Positions 7,006-63,892 of a stretch of 64,000 bases of DNA are shown here, piece after piece (positions within the stretch are counted from its first letter, which is position 1; each line of letters starts with the position of its first letter). Under the pieces are notes generated by a model. The model saw nothing but the letters and a program-made list of their open reading frames with translations, was not told the origin of the DNA and made no database searches. The stretch covers positions 19,470,001 to 19,534,000 of the forward strand of contig CM075987.1 in the NCBI GenBank assembly GCA_038087875.1, written 5' to 3'. The DNA comes from Malacoraja senta (lineage: Eukaryota). The translations under genes and the position numbers were made by a program.

Positions 7006-7197
7006 ATTGAATATCATTCTGCTTCCCTCTATGTGCAAAAATGACACCAAAGGTATAATACAATTTATTGCCAAAAGCTAGTATATAAGCAGCTGCATCT
7101 AACAGTAAAATATTAAAACTGTATTAAACTGCTTAAGCATAATTCAGTAATTGAACAGGTCAAAGTAAGTTTGAAGAAAAGTCTTTAAATACAACAC

Positions 7198-7633
7198 CTG
7201 GTGTTCTGCAAGGACTATTAGAAACCATGGTAGTTCTGGCATCGCCAGAGCCTCCAGCATCTCCTGAACTCAAAGACGTGTCTACATCTGCATCTTCATC
7301 AATTGCATCCACTAATCCCAGCCTGTGGTGCCCACATGAAAATTTTCTATCCTTTTGCCTCTCTTTTTCTGAAATTCCTTTTCCACATTCATCCTGGATC
7401 AGCAGCTCCGTTTCAATCTGCTTCTCAAAAGAACATTTGCTTCTGTTTTCCCCTTCCCCTTTGTCGCTGCTTGCTCCAGAGTCACAGGAGAGAAACTCGT
7501 CCTCCGAAGGACTCCTGTCACCATCTCGTTTTTCCTCTGTGTCACTCGAGGAGTCGCAGTCTCTCTCTGTCAAGGGTTCCTTAAGCTCTTCATGGAGTTG
7601 ATCCATCAAACAACGGAGGAATTCCTGTGTGTC
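7198..7633 (-). CDS. USP20: USP20 large exon ([20 protein letters not shown]...SPCRTP)
   Basis: Within ORF 7160..7666; AG/GT bounded, 436 nt. Confidence 0.93.
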
Positions 7634-7731
7634 CTGGAAAACAAAATCAGAAGTAGAGGAGTACACCAGTCTCAGAAGTACTTGTTGTAAGATTACTTAT
7701 CTCTTTTAAGACAAAATATCTCTCAGCCAAC

Positions 7732-43345: not shown

Positions 43346-44606
43346 CAATCATAGTCTGAGCGATAGTGTGAAAACAGGCCCTTCGGTCCAACTTGCCCAC
43401 AGCAGCCAACAATGTCCCAGCTACACTAGTCCCACTTGCCTGCGCTTGGCCCATATCCCTCCAAACCTGTCCCATCCATGAACCTGTCTAATTATTTCTT
43501 AAACCGCTACCGTCGCCCAGCCGCACGCTGGAGACCGGGGTAAGCGCCAGTGGTGCTTTTATCACCACCACCGATGCCGTCCCCCCTTGCAAGTTTTCGG
43601 GAAACGCCTCGGCCGATCGTCAGTACAGGCTATCGCGATCGGCCAAAACAACCGCCTCCACATGCGCGACCGCCACTCTGGACTTTGTTTCCTGGTGGAC
43701 TCCGGGGCCATCGTGAGCATCCTCCCCCCAACTGGGCTGGACACCCGTGCTGGTAAGCGTGGCCCTGCCCTGACTGCCGTCAACCGCAGTACTATCCGCA
43801 CCTACGGCACGCGGCCCCTACCCATAACCTTCGACTCCCGTCCGTACGTATGTACCTTTACCGTCGTGGACGTACGAGGCGGGCGCCTCATTCTTACGTG
43901 ACCCTGCGACCCACGGCAACACCCTGCCCGCAGCTGAACGCGGTGGCTGAAGTTGAGGGCCCGTATGCCACCCTGCTCGCGGAGTTCCCAGAGCTCCTCA
44001 CCCCTCGTTCCCGCGTTGCGGCCCCCAAGCACGGGGTGCTGCACCCACCACAGGACCGCCATTGCATGCTCGGGCGTGCCGGCTCCCACCCTACAAGCTG
44101 TGCATCGCCAGGGAAGAATTCCAGCTGATGGAGGACATGGGGATCGTGCGGCGCTCGGACAGCCCGTGGGCATCCCCATTACATATGGTCCTTAAATCAT
44201 CTGGGGGGTGGAGACCATGTGGGGATTATAAGCGCCTGAACGCCGTTACGACCGCGGACCGCTACCCGGTCCCACATATACAGGACAGTTCGGCCCATCT
44301 GGAGGGCACTACCTTTTTTTTTTTAAGGTGGACCTGGTCCGCGGTTATCACCAGATCCCTGTTCGCCCGGACGATGTGACCAAGACAGCCACCATCACCC
44401 CGTTTGGGCTTTTTGAGTGGCTCTGTATGCCTTTTGGTTTGAAAAACGCCGCGCAGGCGCTCCAGCATCTAATGGACATGGTCGATCGGGGATTGAACTT
44501 TATTTACATCTACGTAGATGACATCCTGGTTGCGATCCGCTCCCAACAGGAACACCTCACACACATGCGGACGCTGTTCCAGCGGCTTCAAGACCATGGA
44601 CTTGTC

Positions 44607-45649
44607 GTAGGTATGTTACAATATTTACCTTCAGCAGCGCTGCAATTGTGCCACTGGCCGTGTGCGCGATTTTGGCGCCTTTGAGGGGGGGGGGGGTTAA
44701 AACGCGGGTTTCTCCTACCTTGTCCTGAATTATATTTCGTTGGAGTGCCAGCGTTTGCTGAAGAATCGTTCCGAGGGGCGTTTTGTGTATTTTTTATTTT
44801 TATTCGATCGACAAGTTCAGCGCTGGAGTTATTTTAAAATCAGCTTCGAAAGCCGTCAACGCCGACAACGGGGACGGATTTCATGCATGGGACAGGTAAA
44901 CGAAAGCAGTTTATTTTATGTATAAAAGTGCTTCTTAAGAGGCCTTTAATTCACATTTTTAAATGCGAAATGGTGATTCTTTTTCCCGAACTAACGGCAG
45001 TAATTTTCATGCCGATATGGGGTTAAATTCACCGCAAATCAACGTTCCAAATGATCGCGTTCCAGAAAAACCTACTCGGAAGATGATTTAAATGCCCATT
45101 AATTTACAGGTAATAAACATTAAATTCCTTCCATTTGGCCTATAAATCCATGACAATGAGATTTAAAAATTATGTTATATTGTGAATTCTTGTGTGAATG
45201 TTATTTGGACACTTAGGCTATTTAAAAATGTTAATCTATTCTTAAGAGATTGATAGATGTTTAGATCTAGTAATTGAATTTTGTAATTAGCTACAATTAG
45301 GTAACTAACTAATTATATGCTTTCATTTCATTTCATCTAAGTAAGATTGTTTCATATTTGTTTCAGAATGCTTCAATCTATAATAACTGAAAATTTATTT
45401 CAGTTCTTTTAATTTTTAAGAAAGTTATGGGATTTTGACTGCCCTCGATCACAGCTTTTGTGTTAAGTCAATGGAAAAGCAATAGGGAACAAGATGCTAA
45501 TTTCCGAGTATGAAAATGGCCATAACGTTTTTAATACTGAAGATATGAAAGTGAATTAGGTGTCAAATTAAACTTCTCTTTATGCTTTATCTGATGGGAT
45601 AAATTACAGACTTGATTTTTTAAATCTCAAAATTTTGTAACATTGCTAC
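44607..45649. mobile_element. AT-rich non-autonomous TIR transposon nested in the Gypsy RT
   Basis: TIRs GTAGGTATGTTACAATATTT / GTAGCAATGTTACAAAATTT; removing it restores RT ...HGLVVNLAKYQFG. Confidence 0.9.
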
Positions 45650-47651
45650 GTCGTCAATCTCGCAAAATACCAGTTTGGCCTCCGCACTATTTCGTTCCAG
45701 GGGCACAACGTCACCTCGCAGGGCGCCACCCCATTGCCCTCTAAGGTGGAGGCCATCCGGCAGTTCCGCAGGCCTCTCACTGTGAAAGGGCTACAGGAGT
45801 TTGTCGGTATGGTCAACTTCTACCACCGTTTCGTGACGGCGGCGGCCAGAATCATGCGCCCCCTCTTCCAGTGCCTCGCTGGTAAGCCACGGGAACTCGT
45901 GTGGTTCACCGAGGCGGAGGCCCCGTTCGAGGGTGTGAAAGCGACGTTAGGTGGAGTCACCATGCTGGTTCACTTGTGGGCCACGGCCTCAACGGCTCTC
46001 ACGGTGGATGCCTCCGATTCGGCCGTGGGCGGGGTGTTGGAACAGCTCATTGACGGCCGCTGGCAGCCGCTAGCCTTTTTCAGCCGTCAGCTGAGGCCCC
46101 TACTTGCTGGAGGGCAGGCCGTTCACGGCCTTTGCCGACCACAAGCCCTTGGCGTTCGCCTTGGCCAAGGTGTCCGACCCATGGTCCGCTTGGCAGCAAC
46201 AACACCTGGCATTCGTCTCGGAGTTTACGATGGACGTACAGCACGTGGCTGGGAAGTGCAACACGGTCGCCGACGCCCTGTCCCGCCCGGCCCTCCCTGC
46301 TGTGGTGGCTGTGGACCACGGTGTGGATTACGGGGAGTTTGCTGCAGCACACAGAGCGGACGACGGGATGGCGGACTACAGGACGGCCGCTTCAGGGTTG
46401 CGGTTGGCCGACGTTCCATTCGGTCCCAGGGGAGCGTTGGTGCTGTGCGACGTATCCATCCATGGCCTGGCCCACTCTTCAATCCGGGCAACTTCTGCGC
46501 TGGCGGCAGACAAATTCATCTGACAGGGCCTCCGCAAACAGGGCACGCGGCTTGGCCTAGATCCTGCGTCCCCTGCCAGACATCCAAGGTGCAACGCCAT
46601 GTGCGGGCCCCGGTGCAACACTTTGTGGTTCCCTCGAGCCGCTTCCTTCACATCCATGTGGATTTAGTGGGCCTGTTGCCGCCGTCCCTCGGCGCCACGC
46701 ATTTCCTCACGGTTGTGGATCGGTTCACGAGGTGGCCTGAGGCTATTCCGCTGTCGGACACCTCCGCCGCGTTTTGTTCCCGGGCTCTCGCGGCTATTTG
46801 GATAGCTAGGTTTGGGGTTCCGGCAGACATTTCCACCGACCGGGGGCTCAGTTCATGTCCTCGTTGTCGGCTTCGCTGGCGAAGTTATACGGGGCGCAGT
46901 TGCACCACACCACCGCCTATCACCCCCAGGCAAATGGGCTCGTGGCGCAGTTCCACCGCCACTTGAAAGCAGCACTGAAGGCACGGCTCACGGGCCCGGA
47001 CTGGGTCGACCGGTTGCCTTGGGTGCTCTTAGGCATCCGCACGGCTCCCAAAGCAGACTTGGATGCATCGTCCGCCGAGTTGGTCTACGGCTCGGTTTTG
47101 CGGGTGCCCGGGGATTTCCTCCCTGCGGTTCGAGGGCAACTGGAAGACACCCCGGCGGTGTTGGCGATTCTCCGGCAGCAAGTGGGCGGCCTGGCTCCTG
47201 TGCCTACCTCGCAGCATGGGACAGCCCCGGTCCACGTGCCGCCGGAACTTAAAAACTGCTTATTTGTTTTTGTCCGCAGGGATTCGCATCGGTCCCCACT
47301 GCAGCGTGTTTACGAAGGTTCGTTCCGGGTGTTGCGTCGCGACTTTCCGGTTGGACGTTGGGGGCCGGGAGATCGTCTCCGTCGCTCGGCTTAAACCGGC
47401 TCACCTGGATGTCGACAGCCCGGTGGTGGTGGCGCAGCCTCAGCCTAGGGGCCGTACGCTGGCCGATCCAGCGGCACCTGTTGTGCCTGTTCTCCCCGCA
47501 CCTCTTGCTTCTGTTCCTCCCACACCGTCAAGGTCCCCTGGCTTTGTTCCGCCAGCCCCACCTGTATCGCCTGTTGTTACAACGTGGGCCGGTCGTCGGG
47601 TCCGCCCTCCTGCTCAGTTCAATACCTCGGGTTCAGGAGGGGGTGGGGTCC

Positions 47652-47879
47652 TGTAGCGGGCCCCGAGTGGTGGCCTTGTTAATATCGAACCTTCGCGATT
47701 GGCTGGCACCGTCACATGAGCGTGGGAGCTTCTTCGCGGATTTTTTCTGTAACTGTTCATTCTAGCGCCACGCGAATAGATTACACATCGTTAAAATTTG
47801 GCTATTTCGACTCGGGTGACTACTTTGTTTCCGTTTCAAAATAAAGAATTTTTGCATACCTTAACGTCTCGACTCGCCA
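47652..47879 (+). repeat. Gypsy 3' LTR (about 228 bp)
   Basis: Purine tract AGGAGGGGGTGGGG then TGTAGCG...; AATAAA near 47839; ends ...CGCCA (right bound inferred). Confidence 0.75.
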
Positions 47880-52984: not shown

Positions 52985-54585
52985 CAGTGGTTTGCAAAAG
53001 TATTCATACCCCTTGAACTTTTCCACATTTTGTCACGTTACAACCACAAACGTAAATGTATTTTATTGGGATTTTATGTGATAGACCAACACAAAGTGGT
53101 GCATAATTGTGAAGTGGAAGGAAAATGATACATGGTTTTCAAATTTTTTTACAAATAAAAAACTGAAAAGTGTCAGGTGCAAAAGTATTCAGCCCCCCTG
53201 AGTCAATACTTTGTAGAACCACCTTTCGCTGCAATTACAGCTGCAAGCCTTTTGGGGTATGTCTCTACCAGCTTTGCACATCTAGAGACTGACATTTTTG
53301 CCCATTCTTCATTGCAAAATAGCTCAAGCTCAGTCAGATTGGATGGAGAGCGTCTGTGAACAGCAATTTTCAAGTCTTGCCAGAGATTCTCAATTGGATT
53401 TAGGTCTGGACTTTGACTGGGCCATTCTAACACATGAATATGCTTTGATCTAAACCATTCCATTGTAGCTCTGGCTGTATGTTTAGGGTCGTTGTCCTGC
53501 TGGAAGGTGAACCTCCACCCCAGTCTCGTCTTTTGCAGACTCTAACAGGTTTTCTACCAAGATTGACCTGTATTTGGCTACATCCATCTTCCCATCAACT
53601 CTGACCAGCTTCCCTGTCCCTGCTGAAGAAAAGCATCCCCACAGCATGATGCTGCCACCACCATGTTTCACAGTGGGGATGGTGTGTTCAGGGTGATGTG
53701 CAGTGTTAGGTTTCCGCCACACATAGCGTTTTGCATTTAGGCCAAAAACTTCAATTTTGATCTCATCTGACCAGAGCACCTTCCTCCACATGTTTGCTGT
53801 GTCCCCCACATGGCTTGTGGCAAACTGCAAACGGGACTTCTTCTGGCTTTTTTTCAACAATGGCTTTCTTCTTGCCACTCTTCCATAAAGGCCCGATTTG
53901 TGGAGTGCACGACTAATAGTTGTCCTGTGGACAGATTCTCCCCCCTGAGTTGTGGATCTCTGCAGCTCCTCCAGAGTTGGCTGCTTCTCTGATCAATGCT
54001 CTCCTTGCCCGGCGTTTCAGTTTAGGTGGACGGCCATGTCTTGGTAGGTTTGCAGTTGTCCCATACTCTTTCCATTTTCGGATGATGGATTGAACAGTGC
54101 TCCGTGAGATGTTCAAAGCTTGGGATATTTTTGTATAACCTAACCCTGCTTTAAACCTCTCCACAACTTTATCCCTGACCTGTCTGGTGTGTTCCTTGGG
54201 CTTCATGATGCTGTGTGTTCACTAATGTTCTCTAACAAACCTCTGAGGCCTTCACAGAACAGCTGTATTTATACTGAGATTAGATTACACACAAGTGGAC
54301 TCTATTTACTAATTAGGTGACTTCTGAAGGCAATTAGTTGCACTGGATTTTATTTAGGAGTATCAGAGTAAAGGAGGCTGAATACTTTTGCACGCGATAC
54401 TTTTCAGTTTTTTATTTGTAAAAAAATGTGAAAACCATGTATAATTTTCCTTCCACTTCACAATTATGCGCCACTTTGTGTTGGTCTATCACATAAAATC
54501 CCAATAAAATACATTTACGTTTGTGGTTGTAACGTGACAAAATGTGGAAAAGTTCAAGGGGTATGAATACTTTTGCAAGCCACTG
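52985..54585 (-). mobile_element. Near full-length Tc1 (Passport/Eagle-Glan-like), 1601 bp, frameshifted transposase
   Basis: TA|CAGTGG...CCACTG|TA; about 200-bp ITRs; transposase 54206 to 53203 in three frames (GRPPK, WSDE, DLNPIE). Confidence 0.95.
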
Positions 54586-57500
54586 TACATGTTTATGCTT
54601 ATTACTACCAAACGTTTGGATATTGCTGCTTGGATATAAGGATCTCTGTTGTCGTTGATGCCATTTCATGAAGAGACTAAAGAACAATTTATTCCACAAA
54701 TCATTTAGCTGTGGGGCAACCATTTTTAAGGATGGAAATACAGTATCAAGGAGCATCCAGTAAATAAATATGCACTCATGAACTCAAACTTCACATGAAT
54801 TACAAATTTAAGCAGAAGTACTCGGTGATGTAACCAGAATCATTATTTGGAGGGCAAATGGTCTGATTTAATGTGCTACCCATTCCCAATTTTCTTTCCT
54901 ACATCTGCCAAGGTCCAACTCCAAAGCACCGTACCAGTTCCAATAGCTCTCAGAATGTACCTACATTACATGTGTAGCAGGTTATTCTCCTTGATACCGG
55001 TCAGGCATCAGAATTGACAGTCTGATCATCAAACATAGTCAATTTATCAGTATATGAAGCTTATCTGTCCTGCCTAACTCAAAGGCACCAATCTGCATTA
55101 TTGCTTCTCCCAATGCAGGGCTACCAATGTTGGGTGAGAGTTGGGAGTGAGAAATTGTGAGAGACCAAGCCTGAGGGAGCATAGCGACCAGGGGAGGGTG
55201 TGGGAGGAGGGTGCCCCCCCCCCCCCTCCCATTGGTGCGGAACTTTTGCATTTTTCAGCTTGAAATTGTGCAAAAAGGTGCATACTGTAGCGAGTTTTTT
55301 AACTTACACTTGAATGTAATATATATGCTTTAAATTGGATTAGCTATGAATAAGGTTAGACTAAATTACATTCCTAATTACATTCCACAGTAGAGCCCAG
55401 GCTCTGATCAACACGTGCAGCACAATGAATGATCTTAGTATATTCATGTATGGAAATCAGGTTATAATCAAACACTTGGCCCATGTTGACCAACCTGGGT
55501 CTCACTGCACACCTGGTACTACTCCTGGCCCTGACTCCAGTTGCATACCTTCTCTCATTCCTGACCATGAGTCTAGCCTTAAACCTGCCCCCCTATTCTA
55601 CCCTGATCATCGCTGCTTACCTGCTTAGGTTCCCAGTGCTGAACACTCCCCTGGTCCCAGCTTTGATTGCACACCTAGTACTATTCCAGACCTTGACTCT
55701 GGATGCACACTTGGCCTTGCTCCTAGCCCCTCTGCACTGACAATATATCTGGCCCACACATAAAGCCCCATATCTGACCCCCTGGACTTAACCTATTACG
55801 TTCAAGTCCACAGATGCTTATCTAATGCATTAATTTTTTATGGGGCACTTCACAGACCAAATTATGTATAACAAAATTTGCTACATCCATTGGCTTCTTT
55901 GTTATCTAACATGCTAGTTACTTTGTCAAAGAAGTCATCAATTGGTTGAACACAATTTATCATCCATAAAATTATACTCACTCAGCTGTGTAAGTATTCT
56001 GTTACCATTTCTTTCATTTTCCTAACAAACTGTCCTGAAGTCATTTTCACCCCCAATATTTTCAGTATTTTGCTGTCTTCTTCTCAGCTGGGACTTTTCC
56101 GAAATGCAAAGTCCAATAACTATATATTTAAGCAATATTATTCTATTAAATGTCATCTTGAGAGTACATAATATTTTATGTGGTATTCATAACACAACAA
56201 TGATAAAAAGATCTTTGTTTTGATTGCACCTACCAACATGCATACATTATTATATTACAGTTAATATGTACTGAGGGCAAATTTTTGTTCCAATGCTTCC
56301 CATTCCCAATTACTTTTACATTGAAGTGATTGAAATCCAAGTGGTTTAAATGGCATCATAAAAGTCAAACCTCCGGAATGGATGATATTCATCACGTGGT
56401 TGGTTGGTGTCAGTATCAGTACAATTACTATATTAAACTTTGAATCTTCAGATATCCTGGTTCAAGCTAAAACTAAAGACAAATAATAATCTCCTCACAC
56501 ATTCCCCTGCAAGTATCTCTGTCAATCCTTTAAAATATGCCCCTTCTTTGAACAAGCTCTTAAATATCGCATCTGGATCAGTTTCCATCTGATTAAACTC
56601 CTTGAGGATGTTCATCTATGTGTTAAATTAATAAAACAACGAGATTGGAGACATTTCTATTCAACCTGTCAAAGGAATTGGGGGGGGGGGAGTTTAGAAA
56701 TAGTCAGTGAGGTAAACAAACATAATAGTTGAGTGGCAAATGACAATAGTGCTACCTTCCCAATATTTAACTGAAGGAAATAATGGGTTATCGGGGCTGT
56801 ATGTTGTGACAGACAGCCTGACACCTTGCATGTCATTTTAATATTACACTTATCCCATCCCCCTGGATATTCCAGATTAATAAATTAAGGTTTTGTCAAC
56901 TAATTACAAATCAGGCTAATTAGGAATCAATAACATTAGCCAACTCCGAAACATGAAGCGCTGAGCATTGGGATCCAGACATCAGTTCCCCGCTCACATC
57001 TGGCAGTGTTCTCCGTCTGAACCAGGGGCCATGGAGCGTTTTTGAAAGTGGGGAGGCTGAGCCATCACTGATCACTGGCTTTGGGGGTACCCGGTGAGGG
57101 AGTGGAGCAACCGAGTGGGGAGAGGGTGGGGAAGGGGGGTGCCCCCATCCTAGGGTAGGGAATTTTTGAAATTTGATGTATTAAAATCATGTTTTAGTGC
57201 ATTGTAGAAGTATGATTTCAATGTTTTTTGTATGAATTATTTTTAAGAGGTAACTTTTTAAGGGGTAACTTTTTCCACACAAAGGGTGGTGGGTGTATGG
57301 AACAAGCTGCCAGAAGAGGTAGTTGAGGCAGGGACCATCCCAACATTTAAGAAACAGTTAGACTGATACATGGATAGGGCAGCTTTGGAGGTGTGGACCA
57401 AAAGCAGGTAGCGTAGCTGGGACATGTTGGCGGGTGTGGGCAAGTTGCGCCAAAGGGCCTGTTTTCACATTGTATCACTCTATGACTACATTTCCACCAT

Positions 57501-57986
57501 GCATGAATGCTTCAAAATCAAGTGATTGAGTTTTATTACCATATACTCAAGCATAGAAACATGGAAAATAGGTGCAGGAATAGGCCATTCGGCCCTTTGA
57601 GCCAGCACTGCCATTCAATATGATCATGGCTATTCATCTAAAATCAGTACCTCTTTCCGGGTATCATTGATGTCATTAGCCCCAAGAACTAAATGTAACT
57701 CTCTCTTAAAAATATCCAGTAAATTGACCTGCACTGCCTTCTGTGGCAGAGAATTCCACAGATTCACAACTCTCTGCGTGAAGAAGATTTGTCTTCATCT
57801 CAGTCCTAACTGGCCTACCCATTATTCTTAAACTGTGACCCCTGGTTCTGAACTCCCCCAACATTGGGAACATTTTTCCTGCAGTTACAGTAAGTGAAAA
57901 TCTAGCAGGCAAGCAGGATGCTTTCTCCAACCACTCCCATTTGGTCCACTATCTTCCACCGTTTCTACCCAGTGCTTGGTACTTAC

Positions 57987-58142
57987 TACCAGCAGCCACT
58001 GGTTGTCCTCCAGGATGCACCGAGCCGCAGCCTGATCCATGCCGGTCACCTGGGCGAATTTGGCACAGAGACTCTCACGGCAGCGGCGCAACGCTTATAA
58101 TGTCTCCAACATCCCGGGACTCTTGCACTGAGGCTGCTCCAT
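57987..58142 (-). pseudogene. Captured TDP2-like exon 1 fragment (UBA-like domain), premature stop at codon 16, donor intact
   Basis: MEQPQCKSPGMLETL*ALRRCRESLCAKFAQVTGMDQAAARCILEDNQWLLV|GTAAGT resembles human TDP2 RRLLCVEFASVASCDAAVAQCFLAENDWEME (recalled). Confidence 0.75.
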
Positions 58143-58403
58143 GGCCGGAGTTGCAGTGAGCGACTCGCCAGCCCAGCAAACACTCGCCAGCCCAGCAAAC
58201 ACTCGCCATCCCCACTCCCCGTCCGCACCTGTCCCCGCCGCTGCTTCTGCTTCCAACTCCCGCGGCCCATGCAGTTGATATTAGTTTTGACATTTTCGTT
58301 GATCACAGAATTTCTCACGAGAGCGTGAGAAATTTGTGATCAGCGTGAGAATTTGGCAAAATGCGTGATTCTCACGCTCAATGCATGGGAGTTGGCAGCC
58401 CTG

Positions 58404-58714
58404 CCTCTATAATCCCCCTATCTCCCCCCTCTCTATCTCCCCGCTCTCTCTCTCCCACTCTCTGTTCCCCCCTCTCTCTCCTCTCTCTCTCCTCTCTCTC
58501 TCCCCCTCTCTCTCCCTCTCACTCTCCCTCCCCTCCCTCTCACCACCCCTCTCCCACCTCAGTCTCTCCCCTCTCCTCTCTCTCTTCCCCCTCTCCCTAC
58601 CCTCTCCCTACCCTCTCCCTCCTCTCTCTCCCCATTCTCTCCCCGTCTCACCCCCTCTCTCTCCCCAGTCTCCCTGTCTCCTTCCCCTCTCTCTCTCCCC
58701 CTCCCCCTCCCTTT
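58404..58714. repeat. CT-rich low-complexity tract
   Basis: Direct reading. Confidence 0.95.
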
Positions 58715-58729
58715 GAGAGTCTCTGTCCC

Positions 58730-58813
58730 TTCGGCACAGAGACTCTCACGGCAGCGGCGCAATGCTTCCGACGCCTCCGACGGCCCGGGACTATTGCACT
58801 GGGGCTGCTCCAT
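58730..58813 (-). pseudogene. Second, truncated TDP2-like exon 1 copy (MEQPQCNSPGPSEASEALRRCRESLCAE)
   Basis: Direct repeat of about 58060-58142 with no stop; truncated at a fold-back palindrome. Confidence 0.7.
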
Positions 58814-60017
58814 GGCCGGAGCTGCAGCGAGTGACTCGCCAGCCCCGCAAACACTCACCAGCCCCGCTCCCGGCATCTGTCCCCGCCGCAACTTCTACTT
58901 CCATCCCTCCCTCAGCCCCGGCTCTCCAACACCCGTGGCCCATGCAGTTTATGAGTTTTGAAATTTGAGTTGATCACAGAATTTCTCATGACAGAGCGTG
59001 AGAAACTTGTGAGGGCGTGAGAATTTGTCGAAATGCGTTATTCTCACGCTCAAAGCGTGAGAGTTGGCAGCCCTGCAATGTAAGGGTGGGTGGCCTTAAT
59101 GTGTTATGAAATTTAAAAAATGAAATAACTTTTACTTTCATCAATGCCACATTTATTGCTTGTAATAAAATTGGCTCATTTCCTAGCACTGTGATAGTCC
59201 CTCGTGAATGATTTTCAATAATTGCATTAAATCTAGCATAAGAAAAGTCTTGTTAAGTGTTGGCACTATAACTTTTTTTGATTAAGTCCCATCAATTGAC
59301 CAAAACATAATTGATGACATATTTGTCAATTCCTCAATGAGTATGTTACCAAGTTATCTGCACTGAGGATTTAGTGCTCAACGTTCAGTTGGGTGGGATA
59401 TCCCAGGCAGCCTCGTTTGTTTTATCTTCTGTAATCTTATGACCACCCAGCTAATCACACCAAGTCACTTTTGGGGGTATTTTTTCCCAATGTATGATTT
59501 CAATTGCTTTGTTTGAGAACACTCAAATGCCTTAGGACTTTTATACTACATTAAAAAGGCACATTATAATGAAGCTATTGTGATGACAGGCAGGAGAAGA
59601 TTAGAAGCAAATAATCAGTATTTTTTAAATTTATGTAATGAAACATTAAATACAAAGAACTGATTTTCATGCACCACAATCTCACGGTTTGGAGTTTTTT
59701 TGACTACTTATATTTTTGCTTATGCATTCACCAAAAGTCTATAATTAGATTAAAACCATAATTCACTTGGTGATCCATTATTTTATAAAGAAACTTTTTA
59801 AACTGCATGATTAAAACACAGCATTCACCATGCACCAAATTTCCATCATTTCATTTATAATCCTTCTGAACACCTTAATTAAAATGGATAACTCACTACT
59901 GATATCCAACACTCCCTTTGCTATCCTTCACGTTTTGATTCTTTAACTGCAAGGAGCATTGCCCCACACAAAATATCCCATCTAGCAATTTAAAATGTGT
60001 CCATACTCTGATGTTAC

Positions 60018-61717: not shown

Positions 61718-63250
61718 AGTCAAGTCAAGTGAGTTTATTGTCATGCGTCCCTGATAGGACAATGAAATTCTTGCTTTGCTTCAGCACAACAGAACATAGT
61801 AGGCATTGACTAAAAGGCATTCTATAAATATATACACACATGAATCAATATACTGATAAATTGCAAATAACAGTATTGGCTAATAAAGTTCAGTGTTATG
61901 TCCGAGCCAGGTTTAATAGCCTGATGGCTGTGGGGAAGTAGCTGTTCCTGAACCTGGTCGTTGCAGTCTTCAGGCTCCTGTACCTTCTACCTGAAGGTAG
62001 TATGGAGATGAGTGTGTGGCCAGGATGGTGTGGGTCCTTGATGATACTGCCAGCCTTTTTGAGGCAGCGACTGTGATAGATCCCCTCGATGGAAGGGAGG
62101 TCAGAGCCGATGATGGACTGGGCAGTGTTTACTACTTTTTGTAGTCTTTTCCTCTCCAGGGCGCTCAAGTTGCCGAACCAAGCCACGATGCAACCAGTCA
62201 GCATGCTCTCTACTGTGCACCTGTAGGTTAGAGAGAGTCCTCCTTGACAAACCGACTCTCCGTAATCTACTCAGGAAGTAGATGCGCTGATGTGCTTTCT
62301 TAATAATGGCATCAGTGTTCTCGGACCAGGAAAGATCTTCAGAGATGTGCACGCCCAGGAATTTGAAGCTCTTGACCCTTTCAACCATCGACCCGTTGAT
62401 ATAAACGGGACTGTGGGTCCCCATCCTACTCCTTCCAAAGTCCACAATCAGTTCCTTGGTTTTGCTGGTGTTGAGGGCCAGGTTATTGTGCTGGCACCAT
62501 ATGGACAGTTGCTCGATCTCTCTTCTATACTCTGACACATCCCCATCAGTGATACGTCCCACAACAGTGGTGTCGTCAGCGAACTTGATGATGGAGTTCG
62601 CACTATGTCCGGCTACGCAGTCATGAGTATAGAGTGAGTACAGCAGGGGGCTGAGCACGCAGCCTTGAGGTGCTCCCGTGCTGATTGTTATCGAGTCTGA
62701 CACATTTCCACCAATACGAACAGACTGTGGTCTGAGAGTGAGGAAGTCGAGGATCCAATTGCAGAGGGATGCGCAGAGACCCAGTTCTGCGAGTTTGGTA
62801 ACCAGCTTGGAGGGGATGATTGTGTTAAATGCCGAGCTGTAATCGATGAATAACAGCCTGACATATGAGTTTTTGTTGTCCAAGTGGTCCAGAGCGGAGT
62901 GGAGGGCCAGCGAGATCGCATCCACCGTTGATCTGTTGTGGTGGTAAGCGAACTGCAGTGGGTCCAGGTTTTTGTCGAGGTAGGAGTTGATCTGCGTCAT
63001 GATCAACCTCTCAAAGCACTTCATCACCACAGGCGTTAGTGCCACAGGTCGATAGTCATTGAGGCACGTCACCTTACTCTTCTTGGGCACTGGTATAATT
63101 GATGCCCTTTTGAAGCAGGTGGGAACCTCAGACCTCAGAAGTGAGAGGTTGAAAATGTCCGTAAAAACTCCAGCCAGTTGGTCCGCACAGGTTTTTAGAA
63201 CACGACCAGGTATACCATCAGGTCCAGGTGCTTTTCGAGGGTTCACCCCA
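61718..63250 (-). mobile_element. 5'-truncated Rex1/Babar-like LINE with a largely open RT
   Basis: ORF 62101..63321 ([29 protein letters not shown]); one frameshift near 62220; (CTTGA)n tail at about 61718-61731. Confidence 0.92.
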
Positions 63251-63892
63251 ATGAAGTACAATCTCATTTTAGAATTACTGATAACTAGAACCACCGTGTC
63301 CGGCAAATAAATGAGGATCACAGCCAGAACCTAGCAATTAGACAGGCGCATGGATTTGCAGGGAATAGAGGGATATGGGTTATGTGCAGGCAGAGATTAA
63401 TTTAACCCAGCATCAATGTTCAGCACCGATATTGTGGGCTGTAGGACCTGTTCTTGTGCTGTATTGTTCTATCTTCTGTGAGTGTTGGAGGTCAGGAGAC
63501 TAATAAAAGTATATGAGAGGCTTCCTGTGGTGTCCTGTTTTATCTATTTATTACATTATTATAGAAACAACACTATTTCAATGACCACTTTTCACTCTCC
63601 ATCCATCAAAAGAGACAAATAAAGTTAAGATTAAAAAATCAATTTCTTCTCCTTATTATTTCGGGCCAAATTATTACTGGCTTATTACTGGATTTATATC
63701 CAAATCTGAATTTGCATTGTAATTCCCATCAGCAAATATGTGTTGTGCATTGTTCATTGTCACAACTACCCTGGAGAGAGCAGACGTGTTGCAAGGTAGC
63801 CTGTGCAATCTGCATGTAAAAGTCCTGTGGATGCAGCACAAATAAATAGCCGGTGAACGTTAACGTGACGGTGAGATGTCACGACTATTTAC

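Follow-up and report, generated by a model that had tools for sequence, protein, structure and literature searches.

Pack-MULEs of rice and other plants are Mutator-superfamily transposons that have long terminal repeats, make 9-bp target duplications, and usually exist in few copies each; they carry gene fragments between their ends and amplify them. Helitrons, in turn, transpose by a rolling-circle mechanism and have neither terminal inverted repeats (TIRs) nor target duplications. A member of this group in Myotis bats, HelibatN3, captured the NUBPL gene's promoter, its 5' untranslated region (UTR), exon 1, and a portion of intron 1 and rose to roughly 1,000 copies (Pritham and Feschotte 2007, cited in PMC4224331). 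Gene-carrying elements with TIRs (Pack-TIRs) have been surveyed across 100 animal genomes, where 370 elements were counted, among them 208 of the hAT superfamily and only 4 multicopy elements (Tan et al. 2021, PMC8277862). An example is Pack-hAT-N8_XT of Xenopus tropicalis, which carries 291 bp of the CAPSL 5'UTR and is present in three copies (PMC8277862). Here, we describe a non-autonomous element of 3,960 bp (positions 55116-59075) in a 64,000-nucleotide stretch of vertebrate-like, repeat-rich skate DNA (henceforth the window; contig C11:19470001-19534000 of a 1.94-Gb assembly). This element is very probably one member of a high-copy cut-and-paste family that captured the 5' end of the host gene TDP2 as DNA, a reading carried by its ends, target duplications, empty site, copy number, parent locus, and the neutral decay of the cargo, all of which we demonstrate.

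The likeness of the skate family to the Pack-MULEs lies in the carriage and amplification of gene fragments between transposon ends, and the differences lie in the superfamily, long terminal repeats, 9-bp duplications, plant hosts, and usually low copy numbers of the latter. Pack-MULEs are also mentioned in both papers on the animal systems (PMC8277862, PMC4224331). Like HelibatN3/NUBPL, the skate family is a vertebrate DNA transposon with DNA-level capture of the 5' module of a host gene and amplification to around a thousand copies or more (PMC4224331). However, the bat element is a rolling-circle Helitron that carries NUBPL, whereas the skate element has 13-bp inverted ends, 5-8 bp target duplications, and a precise empty site and carries TDP2 in a cartilaginous fish. 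Membership of the Helitrons is therefore rejected by its terminal inverted repeats and target duplications. With the animal Pack-TIRs it shares the form of a non-autonomous inverted-repeat element, a host gene fragment with identifiable parent, and distinct duplications that attest to repeated transposition, but it differs by more than 1,000 copies and a cargo of about 1 kb with a whole exon and splice donor (PMC8277862). The family thus unites the mechanism class of the animal Pack-TIRs with a type of cargo and a copy number like those of the Helibat case, now in a cartilaginous fish, and it stands out by how many copies it has, by a cargo with complete promoter, exon, and donor, and by duplications that vary in length. 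Among the papers listed, our literature search found no account of a skate transposon family carrying TDP2; the main text of the Pack-TIR survey (PMC8277862) does not contain the word "shark", though a cartilaginous fish may be among the genomes that it covered.

The element has the characteristics of a Pack-type transposon, i.e., TIRs with a target duplication, a gene fragment whose parent lies elsewhere, no transposase of its own, and movement as a unit. At its left boundary (55111-55127), CAATG is directly followed by CAGGGCTACCAA, and at its right boundary (59064-59080), TTGGCAGCCCTG runs directly into CAATG. The terminal arms pair as an inverted repeat (17-nt arms, 88% complementary), and the TIRs measure 13 bp, with CAGGGCTGCCAAC as the family form and CAGGGCTACCAAT as the left end of the window copy. 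Subterminal GTGAGA/TCTCAC hexamers occur three to four times per 150-bp end compared to 0.11 expected per 150 bp in the window. An earlier reading of this DNA, made from the letters alone (the sequence-only reading), had proposed a CAATG-flanked unit of this length without a transposase, and this is borne out: no stop-to-stop frame within the 3,960 bp exceeds 182 aa, the longest frames being CT-rich low complexity, and a Pfam scan of 20 element frames detected no transposase domain and, as its sole match, UBA_4 in the exon frame (E 9.3e-5).

The flanks of all ten complete copies compared (the window copy and 9 of 20 fetched loci) match in register, and a control that paired the flanks of different copies gave 0 matches in 90 pairs. 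These duplications measure 5 bp only for the window copy, 6 bp for five copies, 7 bp for three, and 7 bp with one mismatch for the last. Twelve further copies (locus L058 and 11 pairs on contig C1), with flanks read by eye, show 6 bp (n = 4), 7 bp (n = 2), or 8 bp (n = 2), besides three or four with one mismatch and one ambiguous homopolymer. Over the 22 copies, target duplications of the family therefore range from 5 to 8 bp and are mostly 6-7 bp long, with 5 bp found once and 8 bp twice.

An empty CAATG site in a related organism, for which the sequence-only reading had proposed to look, is present in a 2,288-nt contig of run X19 (organism D) that joins window position 55110 directly to 59076. 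This contig aligns to 54667-55110 and 59076-59677 at its adjacent positions 1782 and 1781 and thus reads flank, one CAATG, flank; since these flanks differ by about 5% from the window, it comes from a relative. For contigs of runs X20 and X21 (organisms E and F), the match breaks off precisely at 59076 and 55110, and the element interior is covered at very high summed depth in all three runs. Taken together, the empty site, these breaks, and the interior depth indicate that the family is common to organisms D, E, and F and that this insertion is specific to the lineage of the window.

Elsewhere in the genome, copies with the same ends and cargo and with different duplications were found, and they are numerous. 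The left end (25 nt, at most 1 mismatch) has at least 1,514 genomic matches, the right end 1,108, and a 30-mer of the exon (at most 2 mismatches) at least 1,011, compared to 0 for each reversed control. A query of 420 bp composed of exon, upstream region, and inner end returned 2,632 first-look candidates, and all 40 that were scored are 86-100% identical to it over nearly full length. The whole architecture recurs in other copies, with a common left 1 kb, a long or short interior, an inner right end, a CT-rich tract of variable length, and an outer right end. In assuming a single right end, the sequence-only reading had recognized the outer one correctly, which we take to be the working end, but had missed the inner one (GAGTTGGCAGCCCTG at 58389-58403), the CT-rich tract, and a second, truncated TDP2 copy that comprises the upstream region and first 28 codons and adjoins the outer end. 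Right-end matches come in twos at 14 of the 20 loci fetched at 7.5 kb each. The undoubled form has also transposed, since one locus (L056) combines just one right end with a 7-bp duplication of its own. In other copies, the inner end is followed by a constant flank (...tatagagg), and about 38 of the first 100 right-end matches listed (counted by eye) are preceded by the constant word TGGCCTTAGA, which implies that the right end is internal in a further composite variant.

The cargo lies on the minus strand, where the GC-rich leader, the Kozak context gccATGG (ATG at 58142), the UBA-like peptide LCAKFAQVTGMDQAAARCILEDNQW, and a GTAAGT three codons past the Trp are all present as first described. 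Peptide and donor are thus real, but the 52-codon frame that had been reported is not open in the window copy: it reads MEQPQCKSPGMLETL, a TAA stop at codon 16 (58095-58097 on the plus strand), and ALRRCRESLCAKFAQVTGMDQAAARCILEDNQWLLV, followed by GTAAGT, and it ends in the codon GTA instead of the GAG of other copies. Among solved structures, the peptide best matches the UBA domain of human TDP2 (6q00, E 8.5e-4), its Pfam assignment is UBA_4, and among named proteins Leucoraja erinacea TDP2 comes first, with 79% identity across 98% of the 52 residues. This confirms the proposed identity as TDP2 exon 1 and rules out the other UBA-like proteins FAF1/2, p47, and DCUN1D. The remaining matches, of four proteins in all, comprise one more skate TDP2 and a pair of short read-through open reading frames (ORFs), and a representative protein library contains two matches, one read-through ORF and one unrelated repetitive protein. 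Upstream of the exon, 58143-58260 matches an annotated N-terminal extension of Rhinoraja TDP2. The window itself was rejected as the TDP2 locus, since tblastn with two skate TDP2 proteins detected no other TDP2 exons in it besides the two exon-1 fragments and the catalytic endonuclease/exonuclease/phosphatase exons lie on contig C19 rather than after the window exon 1.

A genome search with L. erinacea TDP2 located these catalytic exons in order on the minus strand of C19 (4698192-4698368, 4677335-4677520, and 4674572-4674886) and, upstream of them on the same strand, an exon-1 match at 4712310-4712516. This is the real exon-1 locus of TDP2 (L041, C19:4707500-4717000), and window positions 57242-58260 are collinear with L041 3812-5142 across upstream sequence, exon 1, and intron 1. 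Identity amounts to 81% for the exon/donor block with gaps counted (57701-58193 vs. L041 4548-5068) and to 86% for the intron block, within which 57261-57624 matches L041 3827-4210 at 87.6%. The outer fragment (58730-58929) matches L041 4910-5138. Homology to TDP2 extends upstream as far as 58929, or about 58260 for the inner copy, and in the direction of the intron as far as about 57242. Exon 1 of the parent is 180 nt long and reads MEQPQCKSLGPSEAAGPQVEGEEEALRRCRESLCAEFALVTGMDQAAARCILEDNQWLLD, with a GTAGGT donor at the same position as in the element, and two high-copy interspersed repeats of the captured intron recur in the same order in the parent intron. Judged by its sequence, the captured fragment is a DNA-level capture as originally proposed; a retrocopy is excluded because the cargo contains upstream sequence and an intron.

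In all four runs, the repeats of the captured intron (57284-57979) reach a summed contig depth 10-100x that found over the remainder of the element, and they are among the most abundant repeats of the sequenced genomes. At the TDP2 locus, a second set of C-terminal exons occupies the same strand at a distance of about 65 kb from the main gene (C19:4603402-4603680, L032, and 4610852-4611049, L033); it covers aa 205-360 with 80-85% identity to skate TDP2 and could represent either a paralogue or a tandem duplicate that is partial.

The cargo copies evolve neutrally, as seen in an alignment of 34 element copies and the parent over about 380 bp. Divergence from the majority sequence in the main subfamily (30 copies) is 4.1% for the upstream region, 4.2% for the exon, and 2.4% for the intron part, and exon substitutions at codon positions 1/2/3 number 57/69/69 with no excess at the third. 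Mean pairwise distance within this subfamily is 6.4%, and the parent stands 16% away from it. Under the assumption that the parent is the root of the tree, four copies (L036, L040, L038, and L037) branch before the star-like main family; all of them keep the AEF residues of the parent, three keep its GTAGGT donor, and L036 also keeps a PQVEGEEE segment that the main family has lost. We read this as one old capture that was probably followed by stepwise change in master copies and then a burst.

Table 1. Parts of the TDP2-carrying element and its target-site duplications in window coordinates.
Feature	Position	Strand	Observation
Target-site duplication CAATG, left copy, 5 bp	55111..55115	.	Single CAATG kept in the empty-site contig of run X19
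Left end: 13-bp TIR and subterminal region with three GTGAGA	55116..55265	+	3 hexamers per 150 bp vs. 0.11 expected
Family-specific interior, no ORF or domain	55266..57241	.	Contig depth like rest of element
Part missing from the shorter family variant (within element interior and captured intron)	~56099-57866	.	Long and short copies compared
Captured start of TDP2 intron 1 (~745 bp); donor GTAAGT at 57986-57981	57242..57986	-	Collinear with L041 3812-4837
Captured TDP2 exon 1, 52 codons, UBA-like domain; TAA at codon 16	57987..58142	-	Peptide and structure matches
Captured TDP2 upstream region (5'UTR/promoter-proximal), ~118 bp, CpG-rich	58143..58260	-	Reaches L041 5138-5142
Inner right end, now internal, diverged; terminal repeat intact	58261..58403	-	CTCCCATGCATTG where the outer end has CTCTCACGCTTTG
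CT-rich low-complexity spacer between inner and outer TDP2 5' copies, length varies among copies; ends in 16-nt inverted exon duplication	58404..58729	.	
Second, truncated TDP2 5' fragment, 28 codons, ATG 58813, parent-like ...LCAE	58730..58929	-	
Outer right end: subterminal GTGAGA/TCTCAC repeats and terminal repeat GTTGGCAGCCCTG at 59063-59075	58930..59075	-	
Target-site duplication CAATG, right copy	59076..59080	.	

How the element reached this form can be outlined as follows. The ancestor of the family very probably took up about 1.0-1.3 kb of the TDP2 5' end of its host as DNA, comprising some 120 bp of upstream sequence, the whole of exon 1 together with its donor, and the beginning of intron 1, which by then contained the repeats. 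The master element later gained the second right end along with another partial TDP2 5' fragment, and the family then spread to more than 1,000 sites. A transposase encoded elsewhere, most likely hAT-like, would move the element in trans by binding the 13-bp repeats and the GTGAGA repeats. The capture itself probably occurred by template switching during repair or replication. Template switching is suggested by the fold-back junction of the truncated outer exon, a 16-nt inverted duplication (58714-58729 vs. 58733-58748) with 3 nt in between, and by the doubled end, and it is the kind of model that has been proposed for multicopy animal Pack-TIRs (PMC8277862). The cargo would be without function for element or host and would amount to no more than a scattered module with the potential to act as promoter, first exon, and splice donor.

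Several observations weigh against this account. The copies that we examined are the best-scoring ones and not a random sample. The last ~230 bp of the captured sequence are less certain because the intron-side boundary (~57242) falls inside a very abundant interspersed repeat, and they could be an independent insertion; co-capture is nonetheless favored by collinearity and by the 87.6% identity to the parent's copy of this repeat compared to 73-80% for other copies in L041. A crude ratio of nonsynonymous to synonymous substitution rates (dN/dS) of 0.55, which ignores transition and CpG bias, would on its own hint at mild constraint. Furthermore, a single transposase does not usually leave duplications that range from 5 to 8 bp within one family, and the autonomous partner with the same TIRs for which the sequence-only reading had proposed to look was not found: among the 1,648 genome candidates for the hAT dimerisation domain (Pfam Dimer_Tnp_hAT), no match was tied to the element ends in the 150 that were scored. 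Since neither an autonomous partner nor a transposase was found, we infer rather than observe both the mobilisation in trans and the superfamily.

The termini of hAT elements follow the rule 5'-YARNG, and short terminal repeats with subterminal hexamer repeats are typical of this superfamily. The skate element combines a CAGGG terminus, which we take to fit this rule, with subterminal GTGAGA repeats and a 13-bp terminal repeat that presumably resembles vertebrate Charlie-type ends, and hAT remnants are abundant in the genome. Membership of the family in the hAT superfamily is, in our view, somewhat favored. A lesser but tenable possibility is that it belongs to a different superfamily or an undescribed lineage with variable staggered cuts of 5-8 bp, with CAGGG as a mere resemblance. 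Besides the lack of a hAT-domain match tied to the ends among the 150 candidates scored, this alternative has the duplications in its favor: hAT lineages are each described with one fixed length, usually 8 bp, with hAT5, hAT6, and hAT7 (5, 6, and 7 bp) as exceptions (PMC12730594). The skate family resembles these three in its hAT-type ends and duplications shorter than 8 bp but differs by having 5, 6, 7, and 8 bp within one family and no known transposase. The 8 bp usual for hAT are seen in only 2 of the 22 copies, a uniform 5 bp is not found, and hAT5, which the sequence-only reading had brought up by taking the 5-bp duplication for a family trait, is unsupported because this length occurs in the window copy only.

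Other ways to accommodate the duplications and candidates for the missing partner were considered and rejected. A hidden fixed duplication of 8 bp, with part of CAGGG contributed by the target, is forbidden by the flank registers. The Dada and IS3EU superfamilies, which make 6-7 bp duplications, were dropped, given the lack of target specificity and of a transposase on which to test them. When the hAT matches on contig C1 were compared by eye with the element ends listed, only one lay near an end (L062), and it is a decayed hAT fragment located outside the element, 430 bp from the left end, with no matching right end, and thus unrelated. The longest paired copy (L063, C1:76258300-76261800) spans 8.0 kb between 7-bp duplications of ATACATC, but its middle 3.5 kb, the part read, holds a nested long interspersed nuclear element (LINE) and no transposase; the LINE has an ORF1-like frame of coiled-coil type besides a 472-aa frame for endonuclease and reverse transcriptase. 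Another match to the hAT dimerisation domain lies about 61 kb upstream of the window (C11:19408412-19408651, E 8.6e-11).

We consider it doubtful, but not far-fetched, that a bolder set of statements holds in full, namely that this is the highest-copy Pack-type TIR element so far seen in an animal, that some copies serve as alternative promoters or first exons of neighboring genes, and that a hAT-like transposase with a flexible 5-8 bp cut mobilizes them. Use of the captured promoter, exon, and donor, with transcripts of some copies spliced into host exons or a free UBA peptide, to the benefit of the family or its host, is quite unlikely. It would be in line with the retention of a CpG-rich 5' fragment (63-67% GC and a CpG observed/expected ratio of 0.71-0.87, vs. 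0.22 in the element's left 2 kb), with a donor that begins with GT in 34/34 copies and reads GTAAGT in 28/34, and with an exon frame that is open in 25/34. A precedent also exists in bats, where Helitrons carrying promoters or first exons have the highest copy numbers and contribute to transcripts (PMC4224331). However, exon substitutions are even over codon positions, and the exon has diverged at the same pace as its upstream region. The protein searches returned no chimeric gene models that carry the exon (only TDP2s, short read-through ORFs, and one unrelated repetitive protein), which is weak evidence against its use. Run X1, which we guess to be RNA, yielded short contigs including one that is unspliced across the exon/intron border and weighs neither way. 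The speculation that the function of TDP2 makes it an intriguing cargo likewise finds no support.

Transfer in the reverse direction, with an exon native to the transposon that was recruited by skate TDP2, is very improbable, even though the exon is met with far more often in copies of the element than in the gene. Human TDP2 begins with the same UBA sequence (6q00), and the C19 locus has no element end or other element parts: neither the terminal 146 bp nor the terminal repeat nor 55116-57241 has a match in L041; this human homologue and the parent locus without element ends exclude the reverse direction for practical purposes. In addition, the parent exon is the longer one, and the near-parent L036 keeps the PQVEGEEE segment lost by the main family. 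Finally, it is scarcely conceivable that two independent insertions, a segmental duplication, or a retrocopy mimic one mobile unit, since, despite other interspersed repeats in the interior and the nested LINE of the 8-kb copy, the whole 3.96 kb are precisely absent with one CAATG left in organism D, which refutes independent ends, the same architecture stands at other loci with different duplications, and intron and upstream sequence exclude a retrocopy.

Other parts of the window around the captured TDP2 fragment hold what look like further mobile elements. A GC-rich block at 43500-47800 (52-63% GC) has long plus-strand frames that we take by eye to be pol-like and derived from a long terminal repeat retrotransposon, with motifs resembling protease, reverse transcriptase, and integrase. 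On the minus strand, a Tc1/mariner-like transposase fragment lies at 53483-53992 and a 409-aa LINE reverse-transcriptase frame at 62101-63330, both judged by eye from their translations. The 178-aa open frame at 7160-7696 (minus strand) contains a motif that we assume to be typical of ubiquitin-specific peptidases (USPs); it may be a host exon, in which case the window may lie inside or close to a USP gene.

For plants, the capture of genes by cut-and-paste transposons is amply documented, and in animals the survey of Pack-TIRs describes almost only single copies (PMC8277862). The skate family shows that a vertebrate inverted-repeat element is able to carry a complete module of promoter, first exon, and donor to more than 1,000 loci and thereby matches the case of the bat Helitron. 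It can serve as a natural experiment for asking whether new transcripts are seeded by 5' gene modules once these are dispersed, how captures arise, where the fold-back junction at 58714-58748 points to template switching, and how one family leaves duplications of 5-8 bp. For the annotation of skate genomes, it comes with the warning that more than 1,000 TDP2-like first exons are transposon cargo.

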